This document shows positions 4,055-63,594 of a stretch of 64,000 bases of DNA, in pieces. Within the stretch, counting starts at the first letter, position 1; each line of letters begins with the position of its first letter. The DNA comes from Alphaproteobacteria bacterium (lineage in GTDB: Bacteria > Pseudomonadota > Alphaproteobacteria > MPNO01 > UBA2964): positions 1,076 to 65,075 of the forward strand of contig JBMYRG010000019.1 of NCBI GenBank assembly GCA_049602055.1, given 5' to 3'. Below the pieces are notes generated by a model. The model made no database searches. It saw only the letters and a program-made list of their open reading frames with translations, and was not told where the DNA came from. A program made the position numbers and the translations under genes.

Positions 4055-5152
4055 ATGCTGTTCATTCATAATGATGTCGTCGAAGAAATCCTCAATATGG
4101 AGGATTGTATCGCGGCGCAGGAACAGGCGTTCCGCGACCTGGCGGAAGGTAAGGCAACGCATCGGCCGCGGTCAGATATTTATGCGCCGTGCGAGCGTGA
4201 TGATGGCTATTACCGCTGGGGGACGATGGAAGGCTGTTCCGGCGGCTATCTCGCCATCCGGATGAAGTCGGACATCATGACCTGGCCGCGCGCCGAGGAT
4301 GGCAGCTGGACCGAGGATAAATACTGTGTTGAGCCCGGCACCTATTGCGGGCTCATCATGTTGTTCTCGGCGATGAATGGTGAACCGCTGGCCTTTATCA
4401 ATGACGGCGTGCTGCAGCATATGCGGGTCGGTGGCGGCGGCGGTATCGGCGTCAAATATCTTGCCCGCGATAACGCCACGACTGTCGGTATGCTGGGTTC
4501 CGGCGGCATGGCCCGGACCTATCTGCAGGCCTATTGCGCGGTGCGCGGGATCACCAAGGTAAAGGTCTATAGCCCGACCAAAGCAAATCGCGAGGCTTAT
4601 GCATCCGAGATGAGCCGGCGCCTTAACATTGAGATACAACCCGTTGATAGTGCAGAGGAAGCGGTTCGTGGTGTTGACATTGTTTCGAGCTGTTCAGACT
4701 CGATGGAGCCGACCTTCGAGGCTGACTGGCTATCGCCCGGTCAGCACGTCACCATGCTTGGTCCGATGGAAATTTCCAATGAGGTTCTTGAGCGTGTTGA
4801 TGTTCGCATTTCACAAGGTAGTGGCGGTCTCGATATTGATAGCAAGGGCACTGAAAAGGGAGTCGGTCACAGCCCACTGGCCTGGGTCGCGGGTTCCGAG
4901 GAAGAACGCAAGCGTCTGCCGGAGAAGCAGGAGAACTTCAACTTCATCGTCGATTTTCCGACCTTTGGGGATTTGGTTAATGATCCATCTATCGGCCGTA
5001 CAGATGATGATCAGATCACGTTCTATCATAACGTCGGCAATCAGGGTCTGCAATTCTCGTCCGTCGGCGGGCTGGTCTATGAAAAGGCGCTGGAAGCCAA
5101 GGTCGGGCGGCATATGCCTACCGAATGGTTCCTGCAGGATATCCGCGACTAA
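4055..5152 (+). CDS. Ornithine cyclodeaminase/mu-crystallin family protein
   Basis: GEPLAFIND..LQHMRVG, GMLGSGGMA NAD-binding motif, QITFYHNVG. Confidence 0.85.
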   Translation: MLFIHNDVVEEILNMEDCIAAQEQAFRDLAEGKATHRPRSDIYAPCERDDGYYRWGTMEGCSGGYLAIRMKSDIMTWPRAEDGSWTEDKYCVEPGTYCGLIMLFSAMNGEPLAFINDGVLQHMRVGGGGGIGVKYLARDNATTVGMLGSGGMARTYLQAYCAVRGITKVKVYSPTKANREAYASEMSRRLNIEIQPVDSAEEAVRGVDIVSSCSDSMEPTFEADWLSPGQHVTMLGPMEISNEVLERVDVRISQGSGGLDIDSKGTEKGVGHSPLAWVAGSEEERKRLPEKQENFNFIVDFPTFGDLVNDPSIGRTDDDQITFYHNVGNQGLQFSSVGGLVYEKALEAKVGRHMPTEWFLQDIRD

Positions 5153-6078: not shown

Positions 6079-6861
6079 ATGGATGTTCAGGCTGTCGAAA
6101 CCTCATCCTCCATTCGTAATCAGGTGAGTGCCGAAGAGTGGGAGGCGCGTGTCACGCTGGCAGCGGGGCACCGGGTGCTGGCGCATTATGGCGTCAATGA
6201 CATGACCTATAACCATTTCAGCCTACGAGTCCCCGGTGAACCCGATCATTTTTTGGTTAAGCCGACCGACTGGATGTTCAATGAGGTTACCGCCAGCTCG
6301 CTGCACAAGTTCGATCTCGATGGTAATCCGGTCGCGCCGCATGAAGGCAAGAACTGTATTGGTGGTGCCTTGATCATTCATGGCGGCATGCTCAAGGGAC
6401 GCCCTGATCTTGATGCCGTGCTGCATACCCATACGCCGGAGGTGATGGGTGTCTCGTCACACAAGTTTGGACTGCTGCCGATCAGCCAGCATTCGATGCG
6501 CTTCTATGGCGAAATGAAATATCATGATTTTAATGGCTTCGAGTTCGATGCGGAGATGACACCGCGGCTGATCAAGGACCTTGATGGCGGCAAATATGCG
6601 CTGTTGCGTAACCACGGCGCGCTAATCTCCGGCAATAGTGTGCCGGAATGTGTGGTCAATCATCACTGGCTCGATATGGCCTGCAAAGGCCAGGTCGCGG
6701 CGCTGGCAGCGGGTGAGGGCAACTACCTCGTACCGGATAAAGAAGCCAGCGAATATGCCGCGCAGCAATTCAGGGATGCTGGCGCTTTCCTTAACGGCAG
6801 CAAGGACTGGGAGGCATGTATACGTCTCGCGGACCGGCTGGATCCTTCCTATAAGGAATAG
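6079..6861 (+). CDS. Class II aldolase/adducin family protein
   Basis: NHFSLRVP, IHG, LHTHT, LLRNHG Zn-binding His motifs. Confidence 0.9.
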   Translation: MDVQAVETSSSIRNQVSAEEWEARVTLAAGHRVLAHYGVNDMTYNHFSLRVPGEPDHFLVKPTDWMFNEVTASSLHKFDLDGNPVAPHEGKNCIGGALIIHGGMLKGRPDLDAVLHTHTPEVMGVSSHKFGLLPISQHSMRFYGEMKYHDFNGFEFDAEMTPRLIKDLDGGKYALLRNHGALISGNSVPECVVNHHWLDMACKGQVAALAAGEGNYLVPDKEASEYAAQQFRDAGAFLNGSKDWEACIRLADRLDPSYKE

Positions 6862-7639: not shown

Positions 7640-8167
7640 CTAAGCGCTTCCTCGATCTCCGAAAAACGCTCCCTCGCGGAAGATTACCGGCACGGTCTTG
7701 TTTTCTTTTGAATCGCCGCGCATTTCCTCGCCCTTGGCATTGAGGCGATAGGGCGCGGCCTGTTTCTTGTAATTCGGATTGCCGACCCGGATCATGACCA
7801 GAGGTTCCTCGCTGGTGGCAAAGAATTTATAAAGGTTGCCGCGTGGCAGCATGATGCCTTCCCACTGACCAAGTTCAATTGCTTCATCTTCAGGGCCAAA
7901 GAACCGGGCAGAACCCTGCAGGATCATAAAGCTGTGATCTTCATGTGGATGGGCGTGCAGTTCATTCTCGCCGCCCGAGGCATAGATTTTGAGCCGGATC
8001 GTGAGATCATCAGTCGCGGCCAGCACACTATCGGTGCGACCCTGATCGAGGAGCTGGCCTTTGAGGGAAAAGACATAGGGTGTTTTTTTGTCGGAAAGTG
8101 CGACCTCCTGCTCTTTCATTTCCTTGTTGGTCAGGGCGGGCGGGGTAAATTGCAGGGCATCAAGCAT
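7640..8167 (-). CDS. Cupin domain protein
   Basis: GGENELHAHPHEDHSFMILQG cupin motif 1; start codon uncertain. Confidence 0.8.
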   Translation of the reverse strand: MLDALQFTPPALTNKEMKEQEVALSDKKTPYVFSLKGQLLDQGRTDSVLAATDDLTIRLKIYASGGENELHAHPHEDHSFMILQGSARFFGPEDEAIELGQWEGIMLPRGNLYKFFATSEEPLVMIRVGNPNYKKQAAPYRLNAKGEEMRGDSKENKTVPVIFREGAFFGDRGSA

Positions 8168-8277: not shown

Positions 8278-8349
8278 GTCATGCCGCACTTGATGCCGCA
8301 TCCGCCGCTGTTGTGGTAGACAAGGATCCCGGATCAAGTCTGGGGTGAC
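8278..8349. repeat. Alphaproteobacterial palindromic REP/RPE-like repeat, copy 1
   Basis: GTCATGCCGCACTTGATGCCGCATC...CCCGGATCAAGTCTGGGGTGAC; near-identical arms at 17069-17139. Confidence 0.8.
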
Positions 8350-8402
8350 AAGACTGTATGTGTGTTGGAGGACATTTCGTGTTGCTTGACGATGAACTAT
8401 AA

Positions 8403-8420
8403 TTGTTTGTACACATACAA
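8403..8420. promoter_or_regulatory. Putative NicR-like operator upstream of the Pcd-like UbiD
   Basis: TTGTTTGTACACATACAA; 16/18 identical to the box upstream of hnr (TTGTATGTACACAAACAA); overlaps TATAAT at 8398-8403. Confidence 0.75.
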
Positions 8421-8459
8421 ATATAGTTTTGGTGATTTAGCGCCACAGGAGGAGACATT

Positions 8460-10025
8460 ATGGCAGACCGGTTAGCTGTAAAGCTGGAAGAAAAAGGGGC
8501 AAATGGCATGACGCGCGAAGAAGCGCTGGTCGATTTGCGCACCACGCTCGATTGGCTTGGCGATGATGTTCAATATATTGATGGCGAGGTCGATCCGCTG
8601 GTCGAGATGTGCACCATCACAAAGGCGTTTGATAATTCCAAAGTGATCGTTGCCAATAACATCAAGGGCTATCCCGGCGTCCGGATGATCTCCAATCTGT
8701 ATTCGCGCAAGGAACGGGTAAACCGGTTCCATGGCGTTGAAGACTTCCGCGATATCAAGCATCAGCTGCTCAACCAGGTGAATAACCCAATCCCGCCGCG
8801 GATCGTCGATGATGCGCCGGTTCAGGAAGAAGTGCTGATTCCGGGCAAGGATTTTGATCATATCCACGATATCATTCCCGTGGCGACGCATACGTTTGAT
8901 GATGGCGGCCAGATTTTTGGCGCCGGGTCACATCTGTTTATGGGAGAGCCCTGGGTACCGGGTGGCGGCAGCCAGATTTCGATGTATCGCATGTCTTTCC
9001 GCGAAGGGCAGAAATATGCGTCGATCAACATGGTGCCAGGCGGTGCTGGTGATGTGATCTGCTCGCATCACCCAGGCAAGAAAGTTCCCTGTACCGTCAA
9101 TATCTGTCCACCTGTAGGACCCGAACTGGTGTCGGTTTCAACAATGAACCCGGTGATATTCCCCGGCCAGACCGACAAGCTCGGCTTTGCCGGTGCCATT
9201 CAAGGCTATCCGGTTGACGTTGTAAAAGCGCGCACCGTCGACGCCTATACCATCGCCAATGCCGAATGGTCACTTGAGGGCTATGTGCTTGAAGGCGAAC
9301 GGGTCTGGGAAACCGAAGAGGCTGAACGGATGGGCAAGCAGGGTGTTGCCTTGCTGCATCCGGAATGGGCGCGCTCGATGGGTCACGCCTATCGTACACC
9401 GCGCGCATTCCAGCTCACCGCCGTGACACGCCGTAAAAAGAACCCGATTGTCTACACACCGCATTTTGGCGCGTTCTGGTATGAAGCCCCGTTCATGTGC
9501 GCCAGCGTTTATGAGTTGTGCGAACGCATGGCGCCGGGCTTTGTAAAAGATGTTGCGAGCTGGCTTGGTCTCACTTTGTGGGGTGGGCTGGTTATTCAGG
9601 TCAAGAAGCGCCGCCGTTCTGATGAAGGTATGCAGCGCAATCTGCTGACCGCCATCATGGGGCTCTATCGTGGTATGCGGCTGGTGGTCGTGGTCGATGA
9701 GGATATTGATCCATGGCAGCCCGAAGATGTCATGTGGGCGATCCAGTCCCGCGCCTCGGCCCAGAAGGACTATATCGTCTACAATGAATATGGCCGTGGA
9801 CAGGCTTTCCAGCCATCAGAGCTCAAGATCGGTAATATTTCGGTCTCGGATGGCGGTATGGGTATCGATGCAACCGCGCCGCTAGGTGAGCAGGTTTATG
9901 AACGGTCAAAATACCCCGTCGATCAGATGGATTTCTCCAAATGGCTCAGCGAGGATGAAATCGCCGAGCTCAAAAATATGCAGGATCCATACTTCCGCTG
10001 GCTCGGCGAAACCGGTCACGGTTGA
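8460..10025 (+). CDS. UbiD-family decarboxylase, phthaloyl-CoA decarboxylase (Pcd/PhtDa)-like clade
   Basis: HPEWARSMGHAY replaces the canonical EGPFGE; AGAIQG.PV..VK.RT.DAYT, WGG.VIQVKKR, QRN.L.A, GRGQ.F.P.E and GGMGIDAT match recalled Pcd signatures; AGGAGGAG RBS. Confidence 0.8.
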   Translation: MADRLAVKLEEKGANGMTREEALVDLRTTLDWLGDDVQYIDGEVDPLVEMCTITKAFDNSKVIVANNIKGYPGVRMISNLYSRKERVNRFHGVEDFRDIKHQLLNQVNNPIPPRIVDDAPVQEEVLIPGKDFDHIHDIIPVATHTFDDGGQIFGAGSHLFMGEPWVPGGGSQISMYRMSFREGQKYASINMVPGGAGDVICSHHPGKKVPCTVNICPPVGPELVSVSTMNPVIFPGQTDKLGFAGAIQGYPVDVVKARTVDAYTIANAEWSLEGYVLEGERVWETEEAERMGKQGVALLHPEWARSMGHAYRTPRAFQLTAVTRRKKNPIVYTPHFGAFWYEAPFMCASVYELCERMAPGFVKDVASWLGLTLWGGLVIQVKKRRRSDEGMQRNLLTAIMGLYRGMRLVVVVDEDIDPWQPEDVMWAIQSRASAQKDYIVYNEYGRGQAFQPSELKIGNISVSDGGMGIDATAPLGEQVYERSKYPVDQMDFSKWLSEDEIAELKNMQDPYFRWLGETGHG

Positions 10026-17068: not shown

Positions 17069-17139
17069 GTCATGCCGCACTTGATGCGGCATCCATCGCC
17101 GCGGTCGTTGAAATGGCCCCCGGATCAAGTCCGGGGTGA
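17069..17139. repeat. Alphaproteobacterial palindromic REP/RPE-like repeat, copy 2
   Basis: GTCATGCCGCACTTGATGCGGCATCC...CCCCGGATCAAGTCCGGGGTGA. Confidence 0.8.
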
Positions 17140-17215
17140 AGTATTCTATTTCGTGGAGGATGACTTTCAGTCCTGCAGGTTTGCCCAGCTGCGGCACGGG
17201 TGCTAAACCATCGCC

Positions 17216-18787
17216 ATGTCTGATACCGCCACCCAACCCGCTAAATCATTTCATCGGGTCGTTGTCGAAAATGCCGCACAATGGCCGGAGCGAACTTACG
17301 TTCACTGCATTGATCAGGATAAATCGCTGAGCTATGGCGCGCTGTATGACGTGTCCAATCGCATCGCCCGGTTTCTGAAATCACGTGACATTAAGGCCAA
17401 TGAGAGGGTGCTGCTGCTGGCGGAAAATTCGGTTGAGAACCTGGCCGTATTTGTCAGCGTGCTGCGTTATGGCGCGACACTGGCGACCGTGCAGGTTGAG
17501 ATGAATAAGGCCAACCTGTCAGAAATCATCGCCGCCATTGCGCCGAAAATCGTGCTCTATCAGGAAGGGCTCGGGCTCGAAGAGCTGGAAGAAGGCGCGC
17601 CGGGGGAATGGTTTGCGCTCGGTGAATGGCAGGCGGACGACAAGGCAGCGACAGGCTGGTTTGCAGAGATTGCCAGTCTTTCAGGTGAAGATGATATCCA
17701 AACCATTGCTGGACCGGATGATCATGCGGTGATCTTTTATACGTCGGGCACGGTGGCGAAGCCCAAGGGTGTGATCCAGACCCATTCAACGGCCTATTAT
17801 AATTATGACGCCACGGCGGATTATCTGCAGCTCGCGCCGGGTGACAAAACCTTTGATTGCCGGTCCTATAGCTGGTTGTCGGCCCAGCATATGAGCCTCG
17901 GTGCGCCGCTGGTGGCCGGGGCAACGACGGTTATGGCCAAGCATTTTTCGCAAAGCCGCTATCTCGGCTGGCTCAAGACCTATGAAGCTAATGTCGGCTT
18001 CGTAGTGCCGACGATTGTGAATATGCTGATTAACCGGCCGCAGGATATTCGCGGTGAGGATCTGCCGCATTTACGGTTTTTGACGTCGAGCTCCGCCCCT
18101 TTACTCGACGAACAATGGCGCAAGTTTGAAGAGATGTATGGCATCACGCTGGCGCAAAGCTGTGGCTCCAGCGAGGGTGGAAACACGGCAGCGCATCGAG
18201 GTGTAGATCGTAAAATCGGGACGATTGGCCCGGCCCAGAAATATCAGGATATCCGGATTGTCGATAATGAGGGCAACCGGTTGCCGCAGGGGGAGACCGG
18301 CGAAATTATAATCGGCGGCGGCAAACAGCAGGCCTTTGGCTATCTGATGCTGGATGGCTCTATCGAACGTTTGCCAGAAGATGGGCACCATTCGGGTGAC
18401 CTTGGTTACTTTGATGAGGACGGTCATCTGCATATCACCGGGCGGGTCAAAGAGCTGATCATCCGCGGTGGTATGAATATTGCTCCGTTAGAAATTGACT
18501 CGGTTTTGATTGAGCACCCCAATGTAACTGAGGCCGGCACCATAGGTGTGCCGCATCCGATTTATGGAGAAGAGGTGGTTTCCTATGTTTCCTGTGTGCC
18601 GGGCAGGGCCGTCTCTTTCCCGGATATTGCGGCGCATTGTGCCGCGCATTTACCCGAAGCCAAATGGCCGAAAGCAGTTTATATTCTTGAGGAATTACCT
18701 AAGAATCCGCGCGGCAAACTGGACCGAAGCGCGATCGCCACACATTATCAGGATCATTACGCCGATAGCGTCGAGTGGTCGTCCTGA
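17216..18787 (+). CDS. Class I adenylate-forming enzyme (acyl/aryl-CoA ligase)
   Basis: YTSGTVAKPKG, SGDLG, GRVKELIIRGG, PKNPRGKLDR. Confidence 0.9.
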   Translation: MSDTATQPAKSFHRVVVENAAQWPERTYVHCIDQDKSLSYGALYDVSNRIARFLKSRDIKANERVLLLAENSVENLAVFVSVLRYGATLATVQVEMNKANLSEIIAAIAPKIVLYQEGLGLEELEEGAPGEWFALGEWQADDKAATGWFAEIASLSGEDDIQTIAGPDDHAVIFYTSGTVAKPKGVIQTHSTAYYNYDATADYLQLAPGDKTFDCRSYSWLSAQHMSLGAPLVAGATTVMAKHFSQSRYLGWLKTYEANVGFVVPTIVNMLINRPQDIRGEDLPHLRFLTSSSAPLLDEQWRKFEEMYGITLAQSCGSSEGGNTAAHRGVDRKIGTIGPAQKYQDIRIVDNEGNRLPQGETGEIIIGGGKQQAFGYLMLDGSIERLPEDGHHSGDLGYFDEDGHLHITGRVKELIIRGGMNIAPLEIDSVLIEHPNVTEAGTIGVPHPIYGEEVVSYVSCVPGRAVSFPDIAAHCAAHLPEAKWPKAVYILEELPKNPRGKLDRSAIATHYQDHYADSVEWSS

Positions 18788-18802: not shown

Positions 18803-19558
18803 ATGCCAGATACGCTCTCCAATAGTGAAGCGATCTCCATCGAACAGCACAAAATTGCGGTCTGTGCTTGCACGCGGATGTTCAATGATCTGAATATTCT
18901 TGATCATAGCGGCCATGTTTCTGTGCGCCTGCCGGACGGTAATCGTTTTCTGATGCAGGGCATTGAGGCGAGCCGGGCACAGTTGGTACCGGATGATCTC
19001 TTCACAGTCAGTCTGGATGGTGAGGTGTTAGACGGTCCTGGTGATACACGGCCCGCTGCTGAGTTTCATATCCACTCTGAAATCTATAAGGCCCGACCCG
19101 AAATCAATTCTGTACTGCATGCCCACACCAAGGTGCCGATCTTGTTTACCATCGCCGAAGGGGCCGAGTTGAAAATGGTGGTGAATCACGGCTATCGCTG
19201 GCGGAATGGCCTACCGGTTCATCGAGATACCGGCCATATCAATACGGCGACGCTCGGTGCTGATATGGTCGCGACGATGGGGGGTGCCAACGCGGTGTTG
19301 CTACGAGCCCACGGTATTGTGTTGGCCTCGGAAGACGTTAAATGTCTGCTGATCGATGGCATTCATTTTGATGAGAACGCGCAAGCATGCTTTGACGCGA
19401 GTCGTCTAGGTCCGCCGGTGGCGATGAGTGAAGAAGAATTGGATATCTTTGAAGGGCGATTCAGCCGCTCCAATCACGGTCGCAAGCTGTGGCATTATTA
19501 CTCGACGCGGGCGATTGAAAATGGTGTGCTACCGGACGAGTGGCGGGACGCAGTTTAG
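18803..19558 (+). CDS. Class II aldolase/adducin family protein
   Basis: SGHVSVR, EFHIHSEIYKARP, LHAH, LLRAHG. Confidence 0.9.
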   Translation: MPDTLSNSEAISIEQHKIAVCACTRMFNDLNILDHSGHVSVRLPDGNRFLMQGIEASRAQLVPDDLFTVSLDGEVLDGPGDTRPAAEFHIHSEIYKARPEINSVLHAHTKVPILFTIAEGAELKMVVNHGYRWRNGLPVHRDTGHINTATLGADMVATMGGANAVLLRAHGIVLASEDVKCLLIDGIHFDENAQACFDASRLGPPVAMSEEELDIFEGRFSRSNHGRKLWHYYSTRAIENGVLPDEWRDAV

Positions 19559-20508: not shown

Positions 20509-20618
20509 GATTTTCTCGTATTTCCGCCGTTTAGGCGGTTGATTGTCTCGAATGAGAATGTCAGTCTGCGCCGCAATGCATGAAAGATTCATGCCAGTTT
20601 CGAAAGGGAGAAATTTCG

Positions 20619-21662: not shown

Positions 21663-21689
21663 GTTGCCGCTGCGATCTAGTAGTTCGTA

Positions 21690-22223
21690 ATGGCTGAAGC
21701 GTCGTTAGAACAGTACACCCGGCCCACTGATCCAGTGGGTCGGGTTTTGTTTCAAATATCGCGTGCGTTTGCGATTTTTGGCGGCTTTGTGCTGTGCGCC
21801 ATGGCCGTCTTGACGACGGTGAGTGTCACCGGCCGCTCGACCATTAGCTTGCCTGTCACAGGTGATTTTGAATTGATCGCGATTGGCACCGGTGTCGCGG
21901 TATTTGCCTTTTTGCCCTATTGCCAGCTGGTTCGCGAGAACGTCATCGTCGATATCTTTATGAGTCGGGCGTCGTTCAAGGCACGGACCATCTGCGACCT
22001 TGTTGGTAATTTTCTTTATGTCGTAATTATTATGCTGATGCTCTGGCGGTTGCCGCTGGGTGGTATGGAGCTCTATGAAAATGACCAGATGACGCTGGTA
22101 CTGGAAGTGCCGCAATGGTGGACCTTCCCCCTGGCCATCCTGTGTCTGATCCTGTTGCTGGTCGTCAATATTTACACTGTGGTGCGGAGCTATCGAGAAA
22201 TCCGCATGAACCGGACACTATAG
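21690..22223 (+). CDS. dctQ: TRAP transporter small permease
   Basis: Four TM helices, SVTGR..GDFEL; lies between dctP and dctM. Confidence 0.9.
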   Translation: MAEASLEQYTRPTDPVGRVLFQISRAFAIFGGFVLCAMAVLTTVSVTGRSTISLPVTGDFELIAIGTGVAVFAFLPYCQLVRENVIVDIFMSRASFKARTICDLVGNFLYVVIIMLMLWRLPLGGMELYENDQMTLVLEVPQWWTFPLAILCLILLLVVNIYTVVRSYREIRMNRTL

Positions 22224-54793: not shown

Positions 54794-54856
54794 TTGACAC
54801 AAATCACCCAGCCCTAGATTATTCGTACACAAACAAGTTTTTGAGTACACTCATTA
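54794..54856 (+). promoter_or_regulatory. nicR promoter with tandem operator boxes (autoregulation)
   Basis: TTGACA-17-GATTAT; TTATTCGTACACAAACAA at 54819-54836 and TTTTGAGTACACTCATTA at 54839-54856. Confidence 0.7.
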
Positions 54857-54870: not shown

Positions 54871-55317
54871 ATGACAGCGAAAGATGGCTATATTCTGGAA
54901 CGCCAGGCGGGGCATTTACTGCGTCGCGCGCATCAGCGTCATTCGGCTATTTTTCAGGAAAATATCGGCGATGCACAGCTGACCCCGTTGCAATTCGCGG
55001 CGCTGATCAAGCTTCGCGATCTCACTGAGGTTTCCCAGAACCATCTCGGTCGCTTAACAGCAATGGATGCGGCGACGATGCAGGGCGTCATAAAACGTCT
55101 CGCCTCCCGTGGACTGATCGAGCGGCGGCCCGATCCAAATGACCGACGCCGTTTGATTCTGAGCTTGAGTATTGAAGGACGCGATCTTGTCGAAGCGCTG
55201 GTCAATAACGGCAGTAATATTACGGCGCAAACGCTTGAGCCGCTGACCGCAGCAGAACAGAAAACGTTTTTGGACTTGCTGACTAAGCTGGCGCAGCTAA
55301 ACGGTAATATTGAGTAG
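54871..55317 (+). CDS. nicR: MarR-family regulator, NicR-like
   Basis: QAGHLLRRAHQRHSAIFQ..QLTPLQF..SQ..TAMDAAT..DPNDRR matches recalled NicR/BpsR sequence; lies near hnr. Confidence 0.75.
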   Translation: MTAKDGYILERQAGHLLRRAHQRHSAIFQENIGDAQLTPLQFAALIKLRDLTEVSQNHLGRLTAMDAATMQGVIKRLASRGLIERRPDPNDRRRLILSLSIEGRDLVEALVNNGSNITAQTLEPLTAAEQKTFLDLLTKLAQLNGNIE

Positions 55318-55332: not shown

Positions 55333-56658
55333 TTAACGCGTGGCGTTAAGGCCCTCGATCATCCCTTCAACGGTACTGAATTTTTTGCGCGGCGCTGGCT
55401 CGGGAGCGGCTTTTTCTTCCAGCTCCTTGATCACCAGCCAATCATCAAACGAGATAGCCTGGAGATTGCGTTCTTTGGTCAGTACGTCGAGCGCATCAGG
55501 GCCGGGCTTTGCCTCGCCGCCAAAGTCAGCGACCAGGAGGTCGGTGACGGCATAGGAATCCAGCCGGTTGGTACCGATCGTGCCAGTAGCCCCGCGTTTG
55601 ACCCAGCCGGCCGCATAAACACCCGGCGCGACGCGGCCTTCTTCATGCTCGACAATACCGCTGCGTTCATTAAAGGGAATACCTTCAATGGCTTCGGCAC
55701 GTGATCCGATGCAGGTTATGACCATTTCGCAGGGGATATCAAAAGTCTCGCCGGTGCCGACGCAACGGCCGCCTTCGACCTTGGTGCGTTCCATGCGAAT
55801 GGCTTCAACGCTGTCACCGCCAAGGATTTCAATTGGCGAGGCATAAAACTCAATATGGACCTTACGACGCTTCTCCCCGGCTTTCGCCTTGGAAAGGTCT
55901 TTGAGTGTATCGACAATACGGGCGCGCACTTTCTTTTCGCGGTCATCCATTTCTTCCGGCATTTCGTCCGGCAAAATAGAGCCATCGACGACAGTTGTCG
56001 CGGCCTCGAGGACACCCATCTCCTTGAGCTCGTTATTCGTACAGGCGGCTTCCAGAGGTCCCCGTCGCGCAAACATATATATGTCTTTGAGTGATGCCGC
56101 GTCGATATCGTCCATCGCGTAATCAGCAATATCGGTTGTAGCCATTTCAGCCGGTGTTCGCGACAGGACACGTGCAACGTCAATAGCGACATTGCCGATA
56201 CCAATTACGGCAGCGGTATTGATGTTGAGATCGGGGCCAAGGTCCTTAAAGTCGGGGTGGCAGTTATACCAGCCGACAAAAGCGTTTGAGCCATAGACGC
56301 CTTTCTTATCTTCGCCAGGGATGCCGAGTTTATTGTCATATGGGGCGCCATAGGCCAGCACCACGGCATCATAAATAGCGGTTAGTTCTTCGAGGCTGAC
56401 ATCACGCCCGAGCGATATATTCCCGACATAACGCACGTTCTCATTCTCGGTAATACTCTGGGCATATTTCTGGTCGACCCGCTTGGTCTTCTGATGGTCG
56501 GGGGCGACGCCACCTCTGATCAGTCCAAACGGAGATGGCAATCGGTCGATGATGTCGATACGGCACCCGGGTGCTTTCTCTAACAACGCCTGTGCGACAT
56601 ACATGCCGCCGGGACCGGAACCGACGATGGCGACACTGCGGTCACTGAACTCACTCAT
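55333..56658 (-). CDS. Ferredoxin-NADP+ reductase (adrenodoxin reductase/FprA type)
   Basis: GSGPGG, PFGLIRGGVAPDH, IGIGNVAIDVAR, RRGP, GWVKRGATG. Confidence 0.9.
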   Translation of the reverse strand: MSEFSDRSVAIVGSGPGGMYVAQALLEKAPGCRIDIIDRLPSPFGLIRGGVAPDHQKTKRVDQKYAQSITENENVRYVGNISLGRDVSLEELTAIYDAVVLAYGAPYDNKLGIPGEDKKGVYGSNAFVGWYNCHPDFKDLGPDLNINTAAVIGIGNVAIDVARVLSRTPAEMATTDIADYAMDDIDAASLKDIYMFARRGPLEAACTNNELKEMGVLEAATTVVDGSILPDEMPEEMDDREKKVRARIVDTLKDLSKAKAGEKRRKVHIEFYASPIEILGGDSVEAIRMERTKVEGGRCVGTGETFDIPCEMVITCIGSRAEAIEGIPFNERSGIVEHEEGRVAPGVYAAGWVKRGATGTIGTNRLDSYAVTDLLVADFGGEAKPGPDALDVLTKERNLQAISFDDWLVIKELEEKAAPEPAPRKKFSTVEGMIEGLNATR

Positions 56659-56755
56659 TCTTAAATCCGCGTTTTATTATTAAGCCCAAAACTGCGGGTG
56701 ATGATAGCCGAACCATGTGCTGAGGAAACCCCTGCCGGTACACTTTTCCACAACA

Positions 56756-56790
56756 AAAAGCCCCGGAAAAATGTATTTGCCGGGGCTTTT
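56756..56790. terminator. Stem-loop terminator downstream of korB
   Basis: AAAAGCCCCGG...CCGGGGCTTTT. Confidence 0.75.
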
Positions 56791-56810
56791 CGTAATATGA
56801 AATGAAAGAA

Positions 56811-57836
56811 TCAGACGACGGTCCAGGTCTTTCCTTTATGCATCAACTCGTTGATCGGAATTGCCGGTGATTTTTTAGTCACATCGGCGATCTGCTCGTA
56901 CACGGCTTCATCGTATGCTGGACCGGGGTCGCGGAAGATAACTCCCATGGCAACCGGGAAGTTTGGAGGCTGCATCCCAGCCAGCATAAGCGCCAGCGGG
57001 CGATTGGTTTCATCATGGATCAGAATGTCATCTTCAGTGACACCATTCTCCCCAATCGTAACGACCTCAAGTTCCATTTTACCGGGGGTCATGCGCAGGC
57101 CTTTTTCATTTTCCTTACCGAACAGCAGCGGTTTGCCATGCTCGCAAAGAATCTGACCATCAGCCGCGTTGGCCTTGTCGGTGAACGAGGAATATACGCC
57201 ATCGTTATAAACGATGCAGTTCTGCAGGATTTCAACAAACGAAGCACCCTTGTTTTCTTTTGCTTCCTGCAGCAGTCCGGGAAGGACTTTCTGGTTGGTG
57301 TCGACAGAGCGCGCAACAAACCGGGCATTACAGCCAAGCGCATAAACACAGGCGGAAACCGGAGAATCGACTGAACCTGCAGGGGTTGAGGGTGAGCGCG
57401 TACCGACTTTCGATGTCGGTGAATATTGACCCTTGGTCAGGCCGTAGATCTCGTTGTTAAACAGCAGGACCTGAACATCGATGTTGCGGCGCAGAACATG
57501 CAGTGTGTGATTGCCGCCGATACTCAGCATGTCGCCGTCACCACCGATGACCCAAACGTCGAGGTCAGGGTTTGCCAGCTTGACGCCGGTGGCAACAGCC
57601 GGGGCACGACCATGGATCGTGTGGAAACCGTATGTTGCCATGTAATAAGGGAAGCGGGCGGCGCAACCGATACCGGAAACGAAGACGGTGTTCTTCGGAT
57701 CGGCTCCCATATTTGAGAGGGCCTTTTGTACGGCCTTAACGATTGCATAGTCACCACAACCTGGGCACCAGCGTACTTCCTGATCGGAAGCATAATCGTT
57801 TGGCTTAAGAGCTTCTGGGGGGCTTTGAACGTTCAT
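56811..57836 (-). CDS. korB: 2-oxoacid:ferredoxin oxidoreductase beta subunit
   Basis: WCPGCGD, SGIGC, HGR, GDGD, NNEIYGLTKGQYSPT. Confidence 0.93.
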   Translation of the reverse strand: MNVQSPPEALKPNDYASDQEVRWCPGCGDYAIVKAVQKALSNMGADPKNTVFVSGIGCAARFPYYMATYGFHTIHGRAPAVATGVKLANPDLDVWVIGGDGDMLSIGGNHTLHVLRRNIDVQVLLFNNEIYGLTKGQYSPTSKVGTRSPSTPAGSVDSPVSACVYALGCNARFVARSVDTNQKVLPGLLQEAKENKGASFVEILQNCIVYNDGVYSSFTDKANAADGQILCEHGKPLLFGKENEKGLRMTPGKMELEVVTIGENGVTEDDILIHDETNRPLALMLAGMQPPNFPVAMGVIFRDPGPAYDEAVYEQIADVTKKSPAIPINELMHKGKTWTVV

Positions 57837-57839
57837 CGA

Positions 57840-59705
57840 TTAGTCCTCCAACCGGCTACGGATTTCTCGTTCCAGATCGGAAACCTTAAAAGGTTGACCA
57901 GTAATCTGGGCGAGAGATTCCGCCGGTACTAGATATTCAGAGCGGAGCAGCGTAACCAGCTGTCCGTTATTCATTTCGGGAACCAGGATTTTATCAAAAC
58001 CCTTCAACAAATCACCGAGGTTACGCGCCAGCGGCCAGATGTAACGGATATGGATGTGAGAAACATCCAGACCGTCTTCCTGACAACGACGGGTTGCCTG
58101 TTCAATAGCCCCGAACGTTGAACCCCAACCGACGACGACCATCTTGCCCGACGTGTTCCCTGACACGACTTCCTGCTCTGGAATATCATCGGCGATGCCG
58201 AGAATTTTCTGAGCCCGGACCTTGGTCATCTTGTGATGATTGTCGGAGTCATAAGAGATATTGCCTGAATCGTAGTCTTTCTCGATCCCGCCAATCCGGT
58301 GCTCCAGACCCGGTGTCCCGGGGATGGCCCAGTTGCGGCCTAATGTCTTCTCATCACGAAGATAGGGGTGGAAGCCTTCGGTCTCGCTGGCGAACTCAAC
58401 CGGGAATGGTTCGACATCATCGGTGTCAGGCAGTTTCCAGGGCTCCGCCGCGTTGGCGAGGAAGCCTTCATTGAGGAACATAACCGGGGTCATGTATTTG
58501 GTCGCCAGACGAACCGCTTCAATCGCGCAGTCATAACAGTCTGACGCAGTAGAGGCAGCAATGACCGGCATCGGTGTATCACCATTACGACCAAATACCG
58601 ATTGATACAGGTCTGACTGCTCGGTTTTGGTCGGCATACCCGTTGACGGTCCAGCGCGCTGGAAGTTTACAATGATCAGCGGTAATTCGGTTACAACAGC
58701 GAGGCCGAGCGCTTCTGACTTCAGCGCGACACCTGGACCGGAACTGGATGTGATTCCCAGCGATCCGGCATAAGACGCCCCGAGTGCTGAACAGATAGCG
58801 GATATTTCGTCTTCTGCCTGGAAGGTAACAACCCCATACGCTTTCAGATTACTCAGCGAATGCAGTAGCGGTGAAGCTGGTGTAATCGGGTAGGAGCCAA
58901 AGAAAATATCCAGACCGGCTTTCTGAGCGCCGGTGAGGAGACCCCAACAGGTTGTTTCAACACCGGTGACAGCGCGGTAGATGCCGGGCTCCACTTTGGC
59001 TTTGGGAACAACATAGGTACTGATTTCACTTGGCAGCTCAGCAGTTTCGCCAAAGGCGTGTCCGGCATTGAGCGCTGCAATATTGGCTTCTGCGATGTGC
59101 GGTAATTTACCGAAACGCTGGTTCAACCAATCAATTGTTGGCTGACGATCACGATCATACATCCAGCACATCAGACCCAACGTCCACAAATTCTTGGCGC
59201 GAAGTGCTTCTTTCTGGGTGACGTCGATGCCTTCAACGGCGGCCAGCGTCATTTTTGAGATATCAATCTCAATGACGCGGTAGCTGTCGAGCGAGTGATC
59301 TTCCAGAGGGCTTTCCTTGTAACCGGCTTTCTCGATATTACGCGCCGTAAAGGCACCGAGATTGAGGATCAGCGTACCGCCGGGGACAAGGTCCTTTAAA
59401 TGGACCTTAAGAGCCGCCGGGTTCATCGCGACCAGAACATCCGGGGCATCGCCCGGAGTTTTGATGACATGCGAGGCGAAGTTGATCTGGAAAGCTGAAA
59501 CCCCATAGGTCGTTCCGACCGGCGCGCGAATTTCAGCAGGAAAATCAGGGAACGTCGAAAGATCGTTGCCCATTAAGGCCGTTGACTGGGTGAACTGCGT
59601 TCCCGTCAGCTGCATTCCGTCGCCCGAATCACCCGCAAAGCGAATAACTACAGAGTCCAGAATTTCGCGGCCGCTCTCGTCGGTTTCTTTGAGTTGTGTA
59701 GCCAT
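57840..59705 (-). CDS. korA: 2-oxoacid:ferredoxin oxidoreductase alpha subunit
   Basis: RFAGDSGDG, YPITPAS, QAEDE, QRAGPSTGMPTKTEQSD. Confidence 0.93.
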   Translation of the reverse strand: MATQLKETDESGREILDSVVIRFAGDSGDGMQLTGTQFTQSTALMGNDLSTFPDFPAEIRAPVGTTYGVSAFQINFASHVIKTPGDAPDVLVAMNPAALKVHLKDLVPGGTLILNLGAFTARNIEKAGYKESPLEDHSLDSYRVIEIDISKMTLAAVEGIDVTQKEALRAKNLWTLGLMCWMYDRDRQPTIDWLNQRFGKLPHIAEANIAALNAGHAFGETAELPSEISTYVVPKAKVEPGIYRAVTGVETTCWGLLTGAQKAGLDIFFGSYPITPASPLLHSLSNLKAYGVVTFQAEDEISAICSALGASYAGSLGITSSSGPGVALKSEALGLAVVTELPLIIVNFQRAGPSTGMPTKTEQSDLYQSVFGRNGDTPMPVIAASTASDCYDCAIEAVRLATKYMTPVMFLNEGFLANAAEPWKLPDTDDVEPFPVEFASETEGFHPYLRDEKTLGRNWAIPGTPGLEHRIGGIEKDYDSGNISYDSDNHHKMTKVRAQKILGIADDIPEQEVVSGNTSGKMVVVGWGSTFGAIEQATRRCQEDGLDVSHIHIRYIWPLARNLGDLLKGFDKILVPEMNNGQLVTLLRSEYLVPAESLAQITGQPFKVSDLEREIRSRLED

Positions 59706-59794: not shown

Positions 59795-59854
59795 TTGTAT
59801 GTACACGAACAATTGATGTGGCAGCCAGTATCGGATAAGTCGGGAATTTGTCAA
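59795..59854 (-). promoter_or_regulatory. korAB promoter with NicR-like operator
   Basis: Minus-strand TTGACA (59854-59849)-16-GATACT; box TTGTATGTACACGAACAA at 59795-59812. Confidence 0.75.
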
Positions 59855-59935: not shown

Positions 59936-59981
59936 TTGACAGAAAACGGTCGCTCGCGGATATTTGTATGTACACAAACAA
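59936..59981 (+). promoter_or_regulatory. hnr promoter with NicR-like operator
   Basis: TTGACA-17-GATATT overlapping box TTGTATGTACACAAACAA at 59964-59981. Confidence 0.8.
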
Positions 59982-60017: not shown

Positions 60018-61511
60018 ATGGCGGATGACACAAAAAGCAAGGATGATGGTCTGATCAGATGCGATGCGTGCCCGGTTCTTTGCCGAATTCGCGATGGAAA
60101 AACAGGGGCTTGCGACCGGTATGGTAATTTCGACGGCAAGCTGGTCCGCATGGATCCGGTCGTTGTTGCGCAAAAAGTCATGGACGAAAAAGGCGAGATG
60201 ATCCCGTTTGCCCAGGCCTCGGAAAGCTGGGATGGCTCACTCATTAGTCAGGCCCCGACTTTTTTGACCGGTATTGGCTCGACAACCACCTATCCGGATT
60301 ACAAGCCAGCACCATTTATCGTGTCCAGCGAGCAAGATGGCGTCGATATGGTCACCGTCGTCAGCGAAGGTGTATTCAGCTATTGCGGCGTGAAGGTGAA
60401 GATCGACACTGATGCCTATATTGGTCCCGAACCAGCTGCGATCCGGGTCAATGGCGAACAGGTCGGCCATGTGACGACGGCTGAATATGGTTCCCAGATG
60501 CTGGCGATTGGCGGTGTCCGGCATCTGACCGGGGGCAGCAAAAAAGAGGGCAACACCACCTGCAATACGATGATGCGGCTGTGTAATAAAGAAGCAGTCG
60601 AGATGACCATCGATGGCGGTGCCGAGATCGTTGTGCAGGCTGGCAAACCTCCCATCATCAACGGTATTCAGGAAGAACGCATGCGGGTTGGTTGCGGGTC
60701 GGCCACCGTCGGTATTTTTGCACCGCAATGGCACAACCATGTTGATGAGGTGATCGTGGTCGATGATCACATCACAGCAGTCTTAAGCGAGCATCAGGCA
60801 GGCAAGTTTATTGATATGCCGCCAGCAGGTATTAAAGTCCGCGGTCGTCGGTCAACGCCAGGCCGCTATTTTCAGGTTGCCGATCACGGCGCGGGCTGGG
60901 GTGGCACCGACATTATCGATCCGCTCGACATCATCGAAAAAATTGATCCTGAGGTGGCCTGGGCGGGGCTGCGTCTGTTGATGGTTTCAACAACGGGGCA
61001 GGATTCAGCTTATTTTGAGCTTGATGAGGAGCTGAAGCCAATCCAGAAAGACATGCCGGAAGCAGTGCAAATTGTTGTCGACAGAATTGGTGAAAACTGC
61101 GAGCCAGCGTTGTGTTCGGTTATGTTTATGGCTGGCGCGGGTGGCAGTTTACGCGCTGGCGTGACCGTCAATCCGGTATTGCTGACACGCTCCGTCAAGA
61201 AATCACACACCGAAGTCACGTGTGGTGGGGCTCCGGTTTTTGTCTGGCCGGGCGGTGGTATTACGCTTTTGGTTGATGTTAATGAAATGCCCGATAATTC
61301 ATTCGGCTATGTACCAACGCCGGCACTGGTAGCGCCAATCGAGTTTACGATACGCGCCGATGAATATGGTGCGCTTGGCGGTTATGTGGATCGCATCCGG
61401 TCTTTGGATGATGTCCTGGAGAAAGAAAAAATTCGATCTGTGCCCTGGCATGAGGATCACCCCTGGCCGCTGGACGTTGGCAAAGCGGTTGAAGAGGCCC
61501 AGGACAGCTGA
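60018..61511 (+). CDS. hnr: 6-hydroxynicotinate reductase
   Basis: CDACPVLC..GACDRY Fe-S motif, YPDYKPAPFI, MRVGCGSA, RSTPGRYF, GAGGSLRAG; UPF0280/DUF1185 context. Confidence 0.88.
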   Translation: MADDTKSKDDGLIRCDACPVLCRIRDGKTGACDRYGNFDGKLVRMDPVVVAQKVMDEKGEMIPFAQASESWDGSLISQAPTFLTGIGSTTTYPDYKPAPFIVSSEQDGVDMVTVVSEGVFSYCGVKVKIDTDAYIGPEPAAIRVNGEQVGHVTTAEYGSQMLAIGGVRHLTGGSKKEGNTTCNTMMRLCNKEAVEMTIDGGAEIVVQAGKPPIINGIQEERMRVGCGSATVGIFAPQWHNHVDEVIVVDDHITAVLSEHQAGKFIDMPPAGIKVRGRRSTPGRYFQVADHGAGWGGTDIIDPLDIIEKIDPEVAWAGLRLLMVSTTGQDSAYFELDEELKPIQKDMPEAVQIVVDRIGENCEPALCSVMFMAGAGGSLRAGVTVNPVLLTRSVKKSHTEVTCGGAPVFVWPGGGITLLVDVNEMPDNSFGYVPTPALVAPIEFTIRADEYGALGGYVDRIRSLDDVLEKEKIRSVPWHEDHPWPLDVGKAVEEAQDS

Positions 61512-62375
61512 ATGTTTGCCCCGGCGCAGATGGCATTGCTGCCAGATGGCCAAAGGCTGCACCTGAATCACGGCCCGATTGACCTGATTGTACAGGCTTT
61601 TGGCGATCCTGATGAGATCAAAAAGTCCTATAAACAGGCGATGTCCTGCTTCCCTGACATTTTGCCGACATTGGTCGATGAGCTTCAAAAATTGCGTCAG
61701 CTTTATAATGAAGACTGGCAGCCGGATGGACGGGTGGCGAGCCATATGCAGATCGCCTGTTCACGATTTTCTTCAGAATTCGTGACACCGATGGCAGCAG
61801 TCGCCGGAGCAGTGGCCGATGAAGTATTGCGGCAGCTGGTTCGTGGCAGGCAGCTTGAAAAGGCCTACGTGAATAACGGCGGGGATATTGCATTCCACCT
61901 GACCGAAGGGCAAAGCCTGACAGCGGGTCTGGTTGCGGATTATCATCTGCCGAATATTGATGGTGAATGTATTCTTACCTATGACATGCCGGTGCGCGGG
62001 ATTGCAACCAGTGGCTGGAAAGGGCGTAGTCTTTCGTTCGGTATAGCTGATTCTGTGTCAGTTTTGGCGAAAGACGCGGCCTCAGCGGATGTAGCGGCAA
62101 CGCTTATCGCCAATGATGTGAATGCAGATCATCGAGGGATAAAACGTGTGCCCGCGTCTGAACAGGACCTCGACAGTGATCTTGGTGAAAGGTTGGTTAC
62201 GGTAGAGGTCGGTGCGCTTGATCAGCAAACCGTCGATGCAGCATTAAACTCGGGCGAGAAGGCGGCCGTTACGGCGGAACAGGCTGGACACATCACAGCG
62301 GCGGTGCTGGTATTGCAGAATAATTTTAGAGTGGTTGGAGCGGCGCCTGCCGGGCTAATCGCAGAGGCGGCGTAA
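61512..62375 (+). CDS. UPF0280 (ApbE-like) protein
   Basis: HGPIDL, TPMAAVAGAVAD, NNGGDIA, ATSG..GRS.S.G.AD. Confidence 0.88.
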   Translation: MFAPAQMALLPDGQRLHLNHGPIDLIVQAFGDPDEIKKSYKQAMSCFPDILPTLVDELQKLRQLYNEDWQPDGRVASHMQIACSRFSSEFVTPMAAVAGAVADEVLRQLVRGRQLEKAYVNNGGDIAFHLTEGQSLTAGLVADYHLPNIDGECILTYDMPVRGIATSGWKGRSLSFGIADSVSVLAKDAASADVAATLIANDVNADHRGIKRVPASEQDLDSDLGERLVTVEVGALDQQTVDAALNSGEKAAVTAEQAGHITAAVLVLQNNFRVVGAAPAGLIAEAA

Positions 62376-62386
62376 AGGAAAAATCC

Positions 62387-63013
62387 ATGGGAAATATTTC
62401 AGACATAGAGACAGCCCCACAAGGCGACTTTGGCGAGCTAGTAAAAGTTCGCAAATTCGTTATCCATATTGAAGAGGTCCTGCATGAGTTCGGGCCGGCG
62501 GCGAACCCGCCACAGCTCAAGGGTTATATCGCGGCGGTTGCGGCTAACCCTTATGCCGGACGTTATGTCGAAGATCTGATGCCATTGATGGAAGCGTTGA
62601 AACCTCTCGGCACAGCGATGGCGCAAAGATTGATTGATGCGCTTGGTGCTGTGGACAAGATTGTCGCCTATGGCAAGTCAGCCATTGTTGGGGAGAATGG
62701 TGAGCTGGAACATGCTGCGTTGTGGCATGAACCCGGCGGCTATGGCATGCGGCAGCTAATCAAGCCGTCCAAGGCCATTGTCCCATCGACCAAAAAAGTA
62801 GCGGGCCCCGGGCGTCCGGTTGATGTGCCATTGGCGCATGTAAATGCGGCTTATGTTCGTAGCCATTTTGATTGCATCGAATGTTCAATTCCGGATGCGC
62901 CGCGCGCGGACGAGATTGTCTGGATCCAGTCAATGGCAACCGGTCCGCGGATTTATGACCGTGCCGGTGGATTAAAGGCTTCTGATATTCAGGGAGAGGA
63001 TGGACTTAAATGA
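62387..63013 (+). CDS. Amino acid synthesis family protein (DUF1185)
   Basis: NPYAGRYVEDL, YGKSAIVG..GELEH, YVRSHFD, PRADE. Confidence 0.88.
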   Translation: MGNISDIETAPQGDFGELVKVRKFVIHIEEVLHEFGPAANPPQLKGYIAAVAANPYAGRYVEDLMPLMEALKPLGTAMAQRLIDALGAVDKIVAYGKSAIVGENGELEHAALWHEPGGYGMRQLIKPSKAIVPSTKKVAGPGRPVDVPLAHVNAAYVRSHFDCIECSIPDAPRADEIVWIQSMATGPRIYDRAGGLKASDIQGEDGLK

Positions 63014-63594
63014 ACGCCAAGATCAGAAAAACCCAGGTAATTGTAGAAACAACCCATAGCGATATCGGTAAGCCGGTTGATCCGGCGACACGTAAGGCTT
63101 CGGCGCTCGCAGTGATCGAAAACCCGTACGCGGGCCGTTATGAAGAGGATTTGTCCGAGCTGATGGATATTGGCGCTGAACTCGGCGGCTATCTCGGCAA
63201 AATGTGTGTCGATGCGCTCGGGATTACACCTGAGCAGGCGGAAAGCTATGGCAAGGCCGCTATCGTTGGCGAGAACGGCGAGTGGGAACATGCTGCGGCT
63301 ATCCTGCATCCCAAGCTCGGCGCGCCTCTTCGCAAAGAAGTAGAAAAAGGGGCAGCGCTCGTGCCATCGGTTAAAAAGCTCGGCGGACAGGGCACCCGGA
63401 TTGACGTACCGCTCGGTCATAAAGATGCGGCCTATGTACGTAGTCACTTTGACGGAATGGAAGTCGGCATGGCTGATGCCCCGCGTGCCAATGAAATCCT
63501 GGTGGCGGTTTCGGTTACCGATTCTGGCCGACCGTTCCCGCGGGTTGGTGGATTGACCACTGATGAAGTGGTGGGCGAGGATGGTCTTCGCTAA
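63010..63594 (+). CDS. Amino acid synthesis family protein (DUF1185)
   Basis: NPYAGRYEEDL, YGKAAIVG..GEWEH, HKDAAYVRSHFD, GRPFPRVGGL. Confidence 0.88.
   Translation: MNAKIRKTQVIVETTHSDIGKPVDPATRKASALAVIENPYAGRYEEDLSELMDIGAELGGYLGKMCVDALGITPEQAESYGKAAIVGENGEWEHAAAILHPKLGAPLRKEVEKGAALVPSVKKLGGQGTRIDVPLGHKDAAYVRSHFDGMEVGMADAPRANEILVAVSVTDSGRPFPRVGGLTTDEVVGEDGLR

Follow-up and report, generated by a model that had tools for sequence, protein, structure and literature searches.

A UbiD-family decarboxylase gene under a predicted 6-hydroxynicotinate-type operator in a marine alphaproteobacterium

The locus analysed here is a 64,000-nucleotide (nt) stretch from an Alphaproteobacteria bacterium (assembly GCA_049602055.1, contig JBMYRG010000019.1, positions 1,076 to 65,075 of the forward strand), referred to below as the window. 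Near its left end lies the gene of a UbiD-family decarboxylase, P0001, and towards its right end lie a MarR-family repressor gene, a 2-oxoacid:ferredoxin oxidoreductase operon and an operon that begins with a homolog of 6-hydroxynicotinate reductase (Hnr). Copies of one 18-bp palindromic box precede the UbiD gene, the repressor gene and both operons, and a gene for an acyl-coenzyme A (CoA) ligase that forms adenosine monophosphate (AMP) lies in between (Table 1). An earlier interpretation made from the letters alone, here called the sequence-only reading, had taken P0001 for an enzyme like phthaloyl-CoA decarboxylase (Pcd), under nicotinate-type control, that may bring pyridine dicarboxylates into the Hnr pathway independently of O2.

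Table 1. Genes, putative operators and other features of the window, in window coordinates; aa, amino acids.
Feature	Position	Strand	Remarks
Cupin_2 protein	7640..8167	-	Pfam; transcribed divergently from UbiD across a common intergenic region
18-bp palindromic box TTGTTTGT-AC-ACATACAA	8403..8420		putative operator, 40 nt before the UbiD start codon
UbiD-family decarboxylase P0001	8460..10025	+	521 aa; clade sister to Pcd
Terminator-like hairpin with U-rich tail, 3' of the UbiD stop codon	10055..10099	+	fold -22.6 kcal/mol, z = -3.4
AMP-forming acyl-CoA ligase, proposed CoA-ester-making partner	17216..18787	+	Pfam AMP-binding; without a box upstream
Box TTATTCGTACACAAACAA before the MarR gene	54819..54836		putative operator, 35 nt before the start codon
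MarR-family repressor, BpsR/NicR type	54871..55317	+	Pfam MarR; presumed box-binding protein
2-oxoacid:ferredoxin oxidoreductase operon	55333..59705	-	alpha 57840-59705, beta 56811-57836, FAD/NAD(P) oxidoreductase 55333-56658
Box, oxidoreductase side of the divergent region	59795..59812		putative operator, 90 nt upstream of the oxidoreductase operon
Box before hnr	59964..59981		putative operator, 37 nt upstream of hnr; abuts the promoter-like pair TTGACA-17 nt-GATATT
hnr operon	60018..63594	+	Hnr homolog 60018-61511, PRK04334-like 61512-62375, AA_synth/PF06684 62387-63013 and 63010-63594

P0001 belongs to the UbiD family. It matches the Pfam domains UbiD_N (E 9.6e-07), UbiD (8.1e-23) and UbiD_C (3.4e-19), and its NCBIfam matches are all sub-threshold (VdcC, 141.8 bits with a cut-off of 650). 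Of the family's Glu-Arg-Glu network, the catalytic Arg and one catalytic Glu are in place: Arg177 and Glu302, the latter in the HPEW motif, are invariant across 42 aligned homologs, and MAFFT aligns them with the Arg of YR and the last Glu of GPFGE in canonical UbiDs. Three motifs of Pcd type, HPEWARSMGHAY at residue 300, WGGLVIQVKKR at 374 and GGMGIDAT at 465, are found in P0001, while the remaining three UbiD open reading frames (ORFs) of the window (24592, 27578 and 29150) have EGPFGE at the first of these positions, as had been pointed out in the sequence-only reading. The AlphaFold2 model of P0001 has a predicted local distance difference test (pLDDT) score of 83.3 and a predicted template modelling (TM) score of 0.85; pLDDT falls below 50 over residues 442-476, a segment that includes GGMGIDAT. 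The top fold match of the model is Pcd with 2-CN-benzoyl-CoA (8oz5; TM 0.77, 34% identity), which ranks ahead of AroY, HmfF, UbiD and Fdc1. At E <= 0.001 the model has 103 fold matches in the PDB, those listed being UbiD enzymes without exception.

The P0001 start codon is preceded, 6 nt upstream, by AGGAGGAG. The gene is probably monocistronic, because a terminator-like hairpin with a U-rich tail follows its stop codon; this hairpin is not among the sites listed by the consensus scan. Contigs from four marine RNA runs (four studies) match parts of the ORF, one of them spanning 8448-9907 in three pieces and three others matching as short pieces at 99% or more. Being assembled contigs, they give neither a start site nor a level, may include carried-over DNA and are uninformative about the uncovered intergenic region. 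Two homologs of the UbiX of Aromatoleum aromaticum EbN1 are encoded in the genome (C4:3660-4268 and C26:18813-19424; 51-52% identity), neither adjoining the P0001 gene, and a ubiX homolog lies at most ~1 kb upstream of the UbiD orthologs in two relatives' loci (L022 and L024). P0001 is best explained as an active decarboxylase dependent on prenylated flavin mononucleotide (prFMN), from a UbiD clade without a characterised member.

Pcd is the nearest characterised relative. A PDB search with P0001 returned Pcd 8pmk at E 1.7e-82 and 8oz5 at 4.8e-82, the next match being AroY at 8.6e-32, and the three motifs align with HPEWAGYMGKAY, WGGCIIQVKKR and GGMGIDAT of both Pcd entries. A 13-residue insertion before the catalytic Glu is a feature of the whole Pcd superclade in the MAFFT alignment. 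Identity is ~35% to the bona fide Pcd of EbN1, whose gene was located in the known cluster that also encodes UbiX and two CoA transferases. Two further ORFs of the window's own genome, C7:87688-89268 and C6:124-1713, are 68% and 66% identical to EbN1 Pcd. Neither has a CoA transferase or ubiX alongside; the C7 copy (region C7:85525-92266) lies among a major facilitator superfamily transporter, an alpha/beta hydrolase, a glutamine-synthetase-like gene and a Rieske oxygenase.

To place P0001 among these proteins, a tree of 64 rows was used: P0001 with 28 of its homologs, Pcd and a second UbiD from EbN1, and the 33 remaining UbiD ORFs of the genome. The 28 homologs were every fourth full-length one (480-570 aa) among P0002-P0121; the outgroup consisted of 31 other UbiD paralogs of the genome with the second EbN1 UbiD, and AroY, HmfF, Fdc1 and isophthalyl-CoA decarboxylase were left out. 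The Pcd clade (three rows, EbN1 Pcd and the C7 and C6 paralogs) and the P0001 clade (29 rows) each have a support of 100 in the Shimodaira-Hasegawa-like approximate likelihood ratio test. They are sisters, with a joint support of 100 and internal branches of 0.58 and 0.49 substitutions per site, and the path from P0001 to EbN1 Pcd measures ~1.7 substitutions per site. P0001 was therefore rejected as Pcd proper, since it falls in the sister clade while the C7 and C6 paralogs group with Pcd. The label "Pcd-like" given to it earlier holds, and the tight grouping with Pcd that was named at the time as telling against a separate function is not seen. Homologs of the P0001 clade occur in metagenome-assembled genomes of Alphaproteobacteria, Dehalococcoidia and Anaerolineae.

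The Pcd signature (HPEW...MG.AY, WGG..IQVKKR, GGMGIDAT) is present in P0001, except that Gly is replaced by Arg and Tyr by Ser just behind the catalytic Glu. Canonical UbiDs and Pcd have Gly at Glu+3, and the P0001 clade has Arg there (100 of 112 homologs with the motif located, from 121 examined). The Tyr that follows is Ser, Ala or Thr in the closer alphaproteobacterial subclade. Because of these changes, the pocket of the P0001 clade is suggested to differ from that of Pcd. This bears on an alternative that the sister relation to Pcd itself favours, in which P0001 would act on the CoA ester of an aromatic di- or polycarboxylate without nitrogen, benzenoid or otherwise, such as an acid of the isophthalate, terephthalate or substituted-phthalate type. 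The box before the gene would then be a regulatory cross-link gained in one family, for example through co-occurring substrates, with no direct link to 6-hydroxynicotinate. The altered residues after the catalytic Glu speak against such a substrate, as do the two close Pcd homologs already in the genome.

The UbiD box, TTGTTTGTACACATACAA, is a copy of the palindrome TTGTWTGT-N2-ACAWACAA. At up to three mismatches the window holds four distinct sites, those of Table 1, where 0.04 are expected by chance, and a count of four was reached in none of 100 shuffles. The UbiD and hnr boxes differ at 2 of their 18 positions, so the match at 16 positions across ~51 kb stated in the sequence-only reading is real. 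Scanning the 3.53-Mb genome gave just three further weak sites, in C1, C5 and C34; the site at C1:202252 falls within a 611-aa ORF and was put down to chance. At marR the box abuts a promoter-like pair, TTGACA-15 nt-TAGATT. The variant TTATTCGTACACAAACAA is also found ~5 kb from hnr in the related genomes G017 and G019-G023.

Among the 25 genomes of the family, a UbiD ortholog is present in 23 and Hnr in 23. A family-wide box scan at up to two mismatches gave 0-7 sites per genome and 0-2 for a reversed control. By coordinate matching, the box stands before hnr in 21/23 genomes and before the UbiD ortholog in 17/23, being absent or degenerate at UbiD in G002, G003, G007, G011, G013 and G016; in the fetched UbiD loci it is found at up to two mismatches in 16 of 26. 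Its information content, calculated over 17 distinct upstream sequences, is 1.84 bits per position, compared with 0.47 in both 25-nt flanks. An operator common to UbiD and hnr, as first proposed from the window, is thus conserved in relatives. The box is kept before UbiD in five of the six genera that have the gene while the flanks have diverged, which argues for selection on co-expression with hnr and against a benzenoid substrate. In one relative (G020, C4:358979-360599; L026) the UbiD ortholog is broken up by a shift of frame and two in-frame TGA codons, although its upstream box is perfect.

The protein presumed to bind the boxes is the MarR regulator. Its solved relatives are 2nnn (7e-33) and Bordetella BpsR (6pcp/6pco, 6e-28). 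In BpsR, according to passages of PMC6837509, Tyr15, His23, Arg26 and His32 hydrogen-bond 6-hydroxynicotinate. These four residues are identical in the window protein (Y7, H15, R18 and H24), and 2nnn differs at two of them. Since the four BpsR contacts are kept while 2nnn departs from them, we infer that 6-hydroxynicotinate is the effector, in support of the NicR-type regulator supposed earlier. MarR regulators usually have a site before their own gene as an autoregulatory layout, and the box before marR would fit the pairing of this repressor with the 18-bp boxes.

A further alternative, in our judgement very unlikely, is that the UbiD box lacks operator function or serves a different regulator from the MarR protein encoded nearby, with the gene lying outside the hnr regulon. 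No canonical promoter surrounds this box according to the consensus scan, the TTGACG and TATAAT hexamers there being only 6 nt apart. A literature search for published BpsR/NicR operator sequences likewise found none, which leaves room for a different binding protein. However, the 18-mer is nearly invariant between its diverged flanks, and across the genome it is virtually restricted to marR, hnr/oxidoreductase and the UbiD gene. Its distance from the start codon is also 35-40 nt at each of marR, hnr and UbiD, and the autoregulatory position at marR points to the same protein.

The Hnr homolog (497 aa) has no match in Pfam, NCBIfam or the PDB; NCBI, JGI and Atlas clusters give its close homologs the name 6-hydroxynicotinate reductase. 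Two AA_synth/PF06684 proteins are encoded in the same operon. Passages of PMC3511419 describe a Bradyrhizobiaceae (alphaproteobacterial) Hnr homolog that is 42% identical to Eubacterium barkeri Hnr and is clustered with two conserved unknown proteins, and a route via 1,4,5,6-tetrahydro-6-oxonicotinate (THON) and glutarate. The 2-oxoacid:ferredoxin oxidoreductase facing hnr plausibly supplies reduced ferredoxin. In sister families (L043-L051) a molybdenum (Mo) hydroxylase, a candidate nicotinate dehydrogenase, directly precedes hnr; in the window's family hnr is split from it, and this genome has its Mo-hydroxylase homolog at C1:184253-187935. The region 52234-54708, immediately before the MarR gene, holds a VanA-type Rieske oxygenase gene and a 454-aa ORF without a family match. 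The Rieske enzyme is conceivable as a demethylase of an N-methyl pyridine carboxylate.

The position of the AMP-forming ligase suggests the form in which the substrate is presented. The PDB entries most similar to it are oxalate-CoA ligase and malonyl-CoA synthetase. In other families a ligase homolog, 40-46% identical to the window ORF, lies directly downstream of UbiD on the same strand, with a gap of at most 40 nt, in 8 of 11 loci (paralogs of 50% identity included). Over 37 loci, a ligase is found within 8 kb downstream of UbiD in 30, and five of the remaining seven loci end early. Because of this synteny and the sister relation to Pcd, a dicarboxylate mono-CoA ester is proposed as the substrate, and the conserved order of UbiD and then AMP ligase makes the CoA-ester idea of the sequence-only reading plausible. 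The reverse order of reactions, decarboxylase first and ligase second, is possible. A ligase working with a UbiD-like decarboxylase also has a precedent in isophthalate and terephthalate breakdown, in passages of PMC9516798 and PMC13040137, which counts in favour of a benzenoid substrate.

In the window, 7.2 kb of other genes separate UbiD from the ligase. The segment 10146-17053 encodes an acetolactate-synthase-like thiamine pyrophosphate enzyme, a DUF1190 protein, a glutathionylspermidine-synthase-like protein, a GT4 glycosyltransferase and a hydrolase. It is missing from most relatives, where a short-chain dehydrogenase/reductase gene or nothing lies between UbiD and the ligase, and is probably an insertion. 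A ~70-nt element occurs at 8278-8352, before the UbiD box, and again at 17069-17140, before the ligase gene. Its right half holds the inverted repeat CCCGGATCAAGTC[TC]GGGG, has seven more copies on six contigs and resembles a small dispersed repeat of the repetitive extragenic palindromic type.

Other neighbours are also conserved. The Cupin gene stands divergently upstream of UbiD in 21 of the 22 fetched own-family loci (not found: L001, L012; also in L021); PDB and Atlas searches with the Cupin protein gave no informative match. The surrounding conserved island (4055-5152, 6079-6861, 18803-19558, 19591-20508 and 20580-23558) encodes an ornithine-cyclodeaminase-family enzyme, a 2-oxoglutarate (2OG)-Fe(II) oxygenase, a tripartite ATP-independent periplasmic (TRAP) transporter and two class II aldolase-family proteins. 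These last two show weak, sub-threshold similarity to 3,4-dihydroxyphthalate decarboxylase. The island is rich in Rieske, 2OG-Fe(II) and TauD oxygenases, and because they are so many, the stress that the sequence-only reading had laid on an O2-independent entry is weak. The Rieske oxygenases of the island and the PhtC-like aldolase-family genes (weak, below the cut-off) lend some support to a benzenoid substrate. Beside UbiD orthologs of other lineages stand RutB/biuret-amidase-like isochorismatase-family genes (three f3 loci and L020) and PuuE-like hydrolases, the latter with ubiX nearby (L022 and L024). These amidase-type neighbours hint at nitrogen-containing substrates and thus count against a benzenoid one.

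The safest statement is that P0001 is a working decarboxylase from a new clade beside Pcd, and that one bacterial family appears to have recruited its gene into a 6-hydroxynicotinate-type regulon. Beyond this, we tentatively favour a possible role of P0001 as a feeder of the Hnr pathway, decarboxylating the CoA ester of a pyridine ortho-dicarboxylate. The BpsR/NicR-type MarR protein would bind the 18-bp palindrome over the promoter and be released by 6-hydroxynicotinate. With UbiD under the hnr repressor, the gene would then be switched on along with Hnr and the ferredoxin-reducing oxidoreductase. The AMP ligase, as the ancestral operon partner, would make the CoA thioester of a dicarboxylic acid, and P0001, like Pcd, would most likely take one carboxyl off it. 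Quinolinate, cinchomeronate or a hydroxylated form would in this way yield, as the CoA ester, a product at the nicotinyl or 6-hydroxynicotinyl level, which would join the Hnr pathway.

The distribution of the two genes is consistent with such a feeder. Of the order's 78 genomes, 67 have Hnr and 32 have a UbiD ortholog, and such a distribution suits a peripheral feeder better than a core step. Co-occurrence of UbiD and Hnr as such is uninformative and was set aside as evidence, Hnr being near-universal in family and order.

The same counts bear on the placement of P0001 downstream of Hnr. In relatives the box also precedes a caprolactamase-like hydantoinase A/B pair (L054, G013 C45:31121; L059, G009 C11:45196) and etfBA with a 3-hydroxyacyl-CoA dehydrogenase gene (L055, G001 C2:72468; L058, G010 C66:3490). 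This suggests that the regulon of these relatives includes ATP-dependent lactam opening and a glutaryl-CoA branch, and the extra targets fit a route from nicotinate to glutaryl-CoA. Such targets are of downstream type, and P0001, sharing their predicted box control with hnr, could be one more. It would then decarboxylate THON or the enol of 2-formylglutarate, possibly as the CoA ester, and the ligase would afterwards make glutaryl-CoA; the carboxyl removed would be the former nicotinate carboxyl, taken from an alpha,beta-unsaturated acid. The ligase does resemble aliphatic dicarboxylate-CoA ligases, and UbiD chemistry on acrylic-type acids is established (Fdc1 entries). Work by Kitts et al. 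in 1992 is said to have placed decarboxylation after ring opening. The alphaproteobacterial route, in passages of PMC3511419, runs from THON via glutarate. We nevertheless regard this placement as quite improbable. Most Hnr-bearing genomes do without UbiD, the UbiD-ligase pair of other families is neither near hnr nor linked to the box, and the nearest characterised relative takes an aromatic ortho-carboxy thioester, not an aliphatic enol acid.

Several observations also weigh against a feeder of the Hnr pathway. The ligase has no box in this genome, so that only half of the proposed two-step feeder would lie inside the regulon, and the promoter at the UbiD box is irregular. Three family genomes (G007, G011 and G013) keep the box at hnr and not at UbiD. 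On whether orthologs keep the box or sit beside hnr genes, as the sequence-only reading had asked, the outcome is mixed: 17/23 family genomes have the box, but outside the family no site was found at UbiD orthologs and hnr (20 loci, up to four mismatches), and the two genes are unlinked there. One genome of unknown completeness, G078, has a 74% UbiD ortholog, and Hnr was not found in it. Rieske ring-hydroxylating oxygenases adjoin the 50% paralogs, which fits benzenoid acids, and the 34 UbiD paralogs of the genome imply a broad substrate range. Finally, no thioesterase or other route from nicotinyl-CoA to the free-acid substrate of Hnr was identified.

Some of this speaks for a benzenoid substrate: the box link that is absent outside the family and lost in three family genomes, the Rieske genes and the 34 paralogs. 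We consider a benzenoid substrate somewhat unlikely and rank it second. The feeder of the Hnr pathway is placed first because the co-regulation has persisted across five genera, UbiD is an accessory to Hnr, and hydrolases of nitrogen type are found beside its orthologs elsewhere; action downstream of Hnr comes third.

A more specific claim, that the UbiD-ligase pair represents a new activity, an aza-phthaloyl-CoA decarboxylase acting on pyridine-2,3- or -3,4-dicarboxylyl-CoA, possibly 6-hydroxylated, is in our view fairly doubtful. If true, marine Alphaproteobacteria would have a so far undescribed way of bringing pyridine dicarboxylates into the reductive Hnr pathway, controlled by a repressor that senses 6-hydroxynicotinate, and the exchange of Gly for Arg beside the catalytic Glu would be an adaptation to the ring nitrogen or a hydroxyl. 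A literature search found no paper joining UbiD with 6-hydroxynicotin*. A search on prFMN, pyridine, dicarboxyl and CoA gave three reviews, which judging by titles and abstracts deal with lignin and phthalates, and a looser one on the same subject had nothing relevant among the matches listed. The matching passages of a paper on the dipicolinate dip cluster do not mention UbiD.

The wider genome is striking for what appears to be an expansion of prFMN decarboxylases in this marine alphaproteobacterial lineage. Its 3.53 Mb hold 34 UbiD-family ORFs (the C7 and C6 copies above and others in C13, C20, C1 and C8) and two ubiX genes, and relatives have 26-43 first-look UbiD candidates each. Such numbers point to decarboxylation as a major strategy on carboxyl-rich aromatic matter at sea. 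To our knowledge, few UbiD enzymes act on CoA thioesters, all of them in the anaerobic breakdown of phthalate isomers. The present analysis adds a large sister clade of Pcd with a conserved ligase partner and no assigned substrate. Its repressor wiring in one marine family narrows the substrate search to a short list and could bring to light a new way into catabolism for the pyridine carboxylates, a widespread group of nitrogen heterocycles.

Compared with known systems, P0001 is closest to Pcd/PhtDa of Thauera chlorobenzoica and A. aromaticum EbN1 (PDB 8pmk, 8oz5 and 8p02). The two share the UbiD fold, with Pcd as the best match in both sequence and fold, the 13-residue insertion and the three motifs, and P0001 orthologs in relatives are, like Pcd, linked to a gene for a CoA-activating enzyme. 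They differ in their low identity and separate clades and in the Gly-to-Arg and Tyr-to-Ser exchanges beside the catalytic Glu. In contrast to the EbN1 cluster, the P0001 gene has neither ubiX nor class III CoA transferases adjacent, its AMP ligase lying further downstream. Its host, unlike those of Pcd, is aerobic and marine and has two close Pcd homologs besides, and the gene is predicted to be under nicotinate-type repressor control. The isophthalyl-CoA decarboxylase and isophthalate:CoA ligase of Syntrophorhabdus aromaticivorans, as described in passages of PMC9516798, follow the same logic of ligase and UbiD-like decarboxylase on a dicarboxylate mono-CoA ester. The S. aromaticivorans ligase is of PaaK type in the same passages, whereas the window ligase resembles oxalate- and malonyl-CoA ligases.

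On the regulatory side, the BpsR (Bordetella) and NicR (Pseudomonas putida) regulons likewise have a MarR repressor with sites before catabolic operons and before the regulator gene, and the 6-hydroxynicotinate contacts of BpsR are all retained in the window protein. The targets differ: BpsR and NicR control the aerobic nicC/nicX route, whereas the predicted regulon of the window comprises the reductive Hnr route, a ferredoxin-reducing oxidoreductase and UbiD. Sister families keep hnr behind the Mo-hydroxylase, and in the window's family hnr is instead paired with the oxoacid:ferredoxin oxidoreductase. Unlike the alphaproteobacterial nicotinate cluster of Azorhizobium caulinodans and Bradyrhizobiaceae SG-6C, the regulon in this family appears to have been joined by a UbiD.

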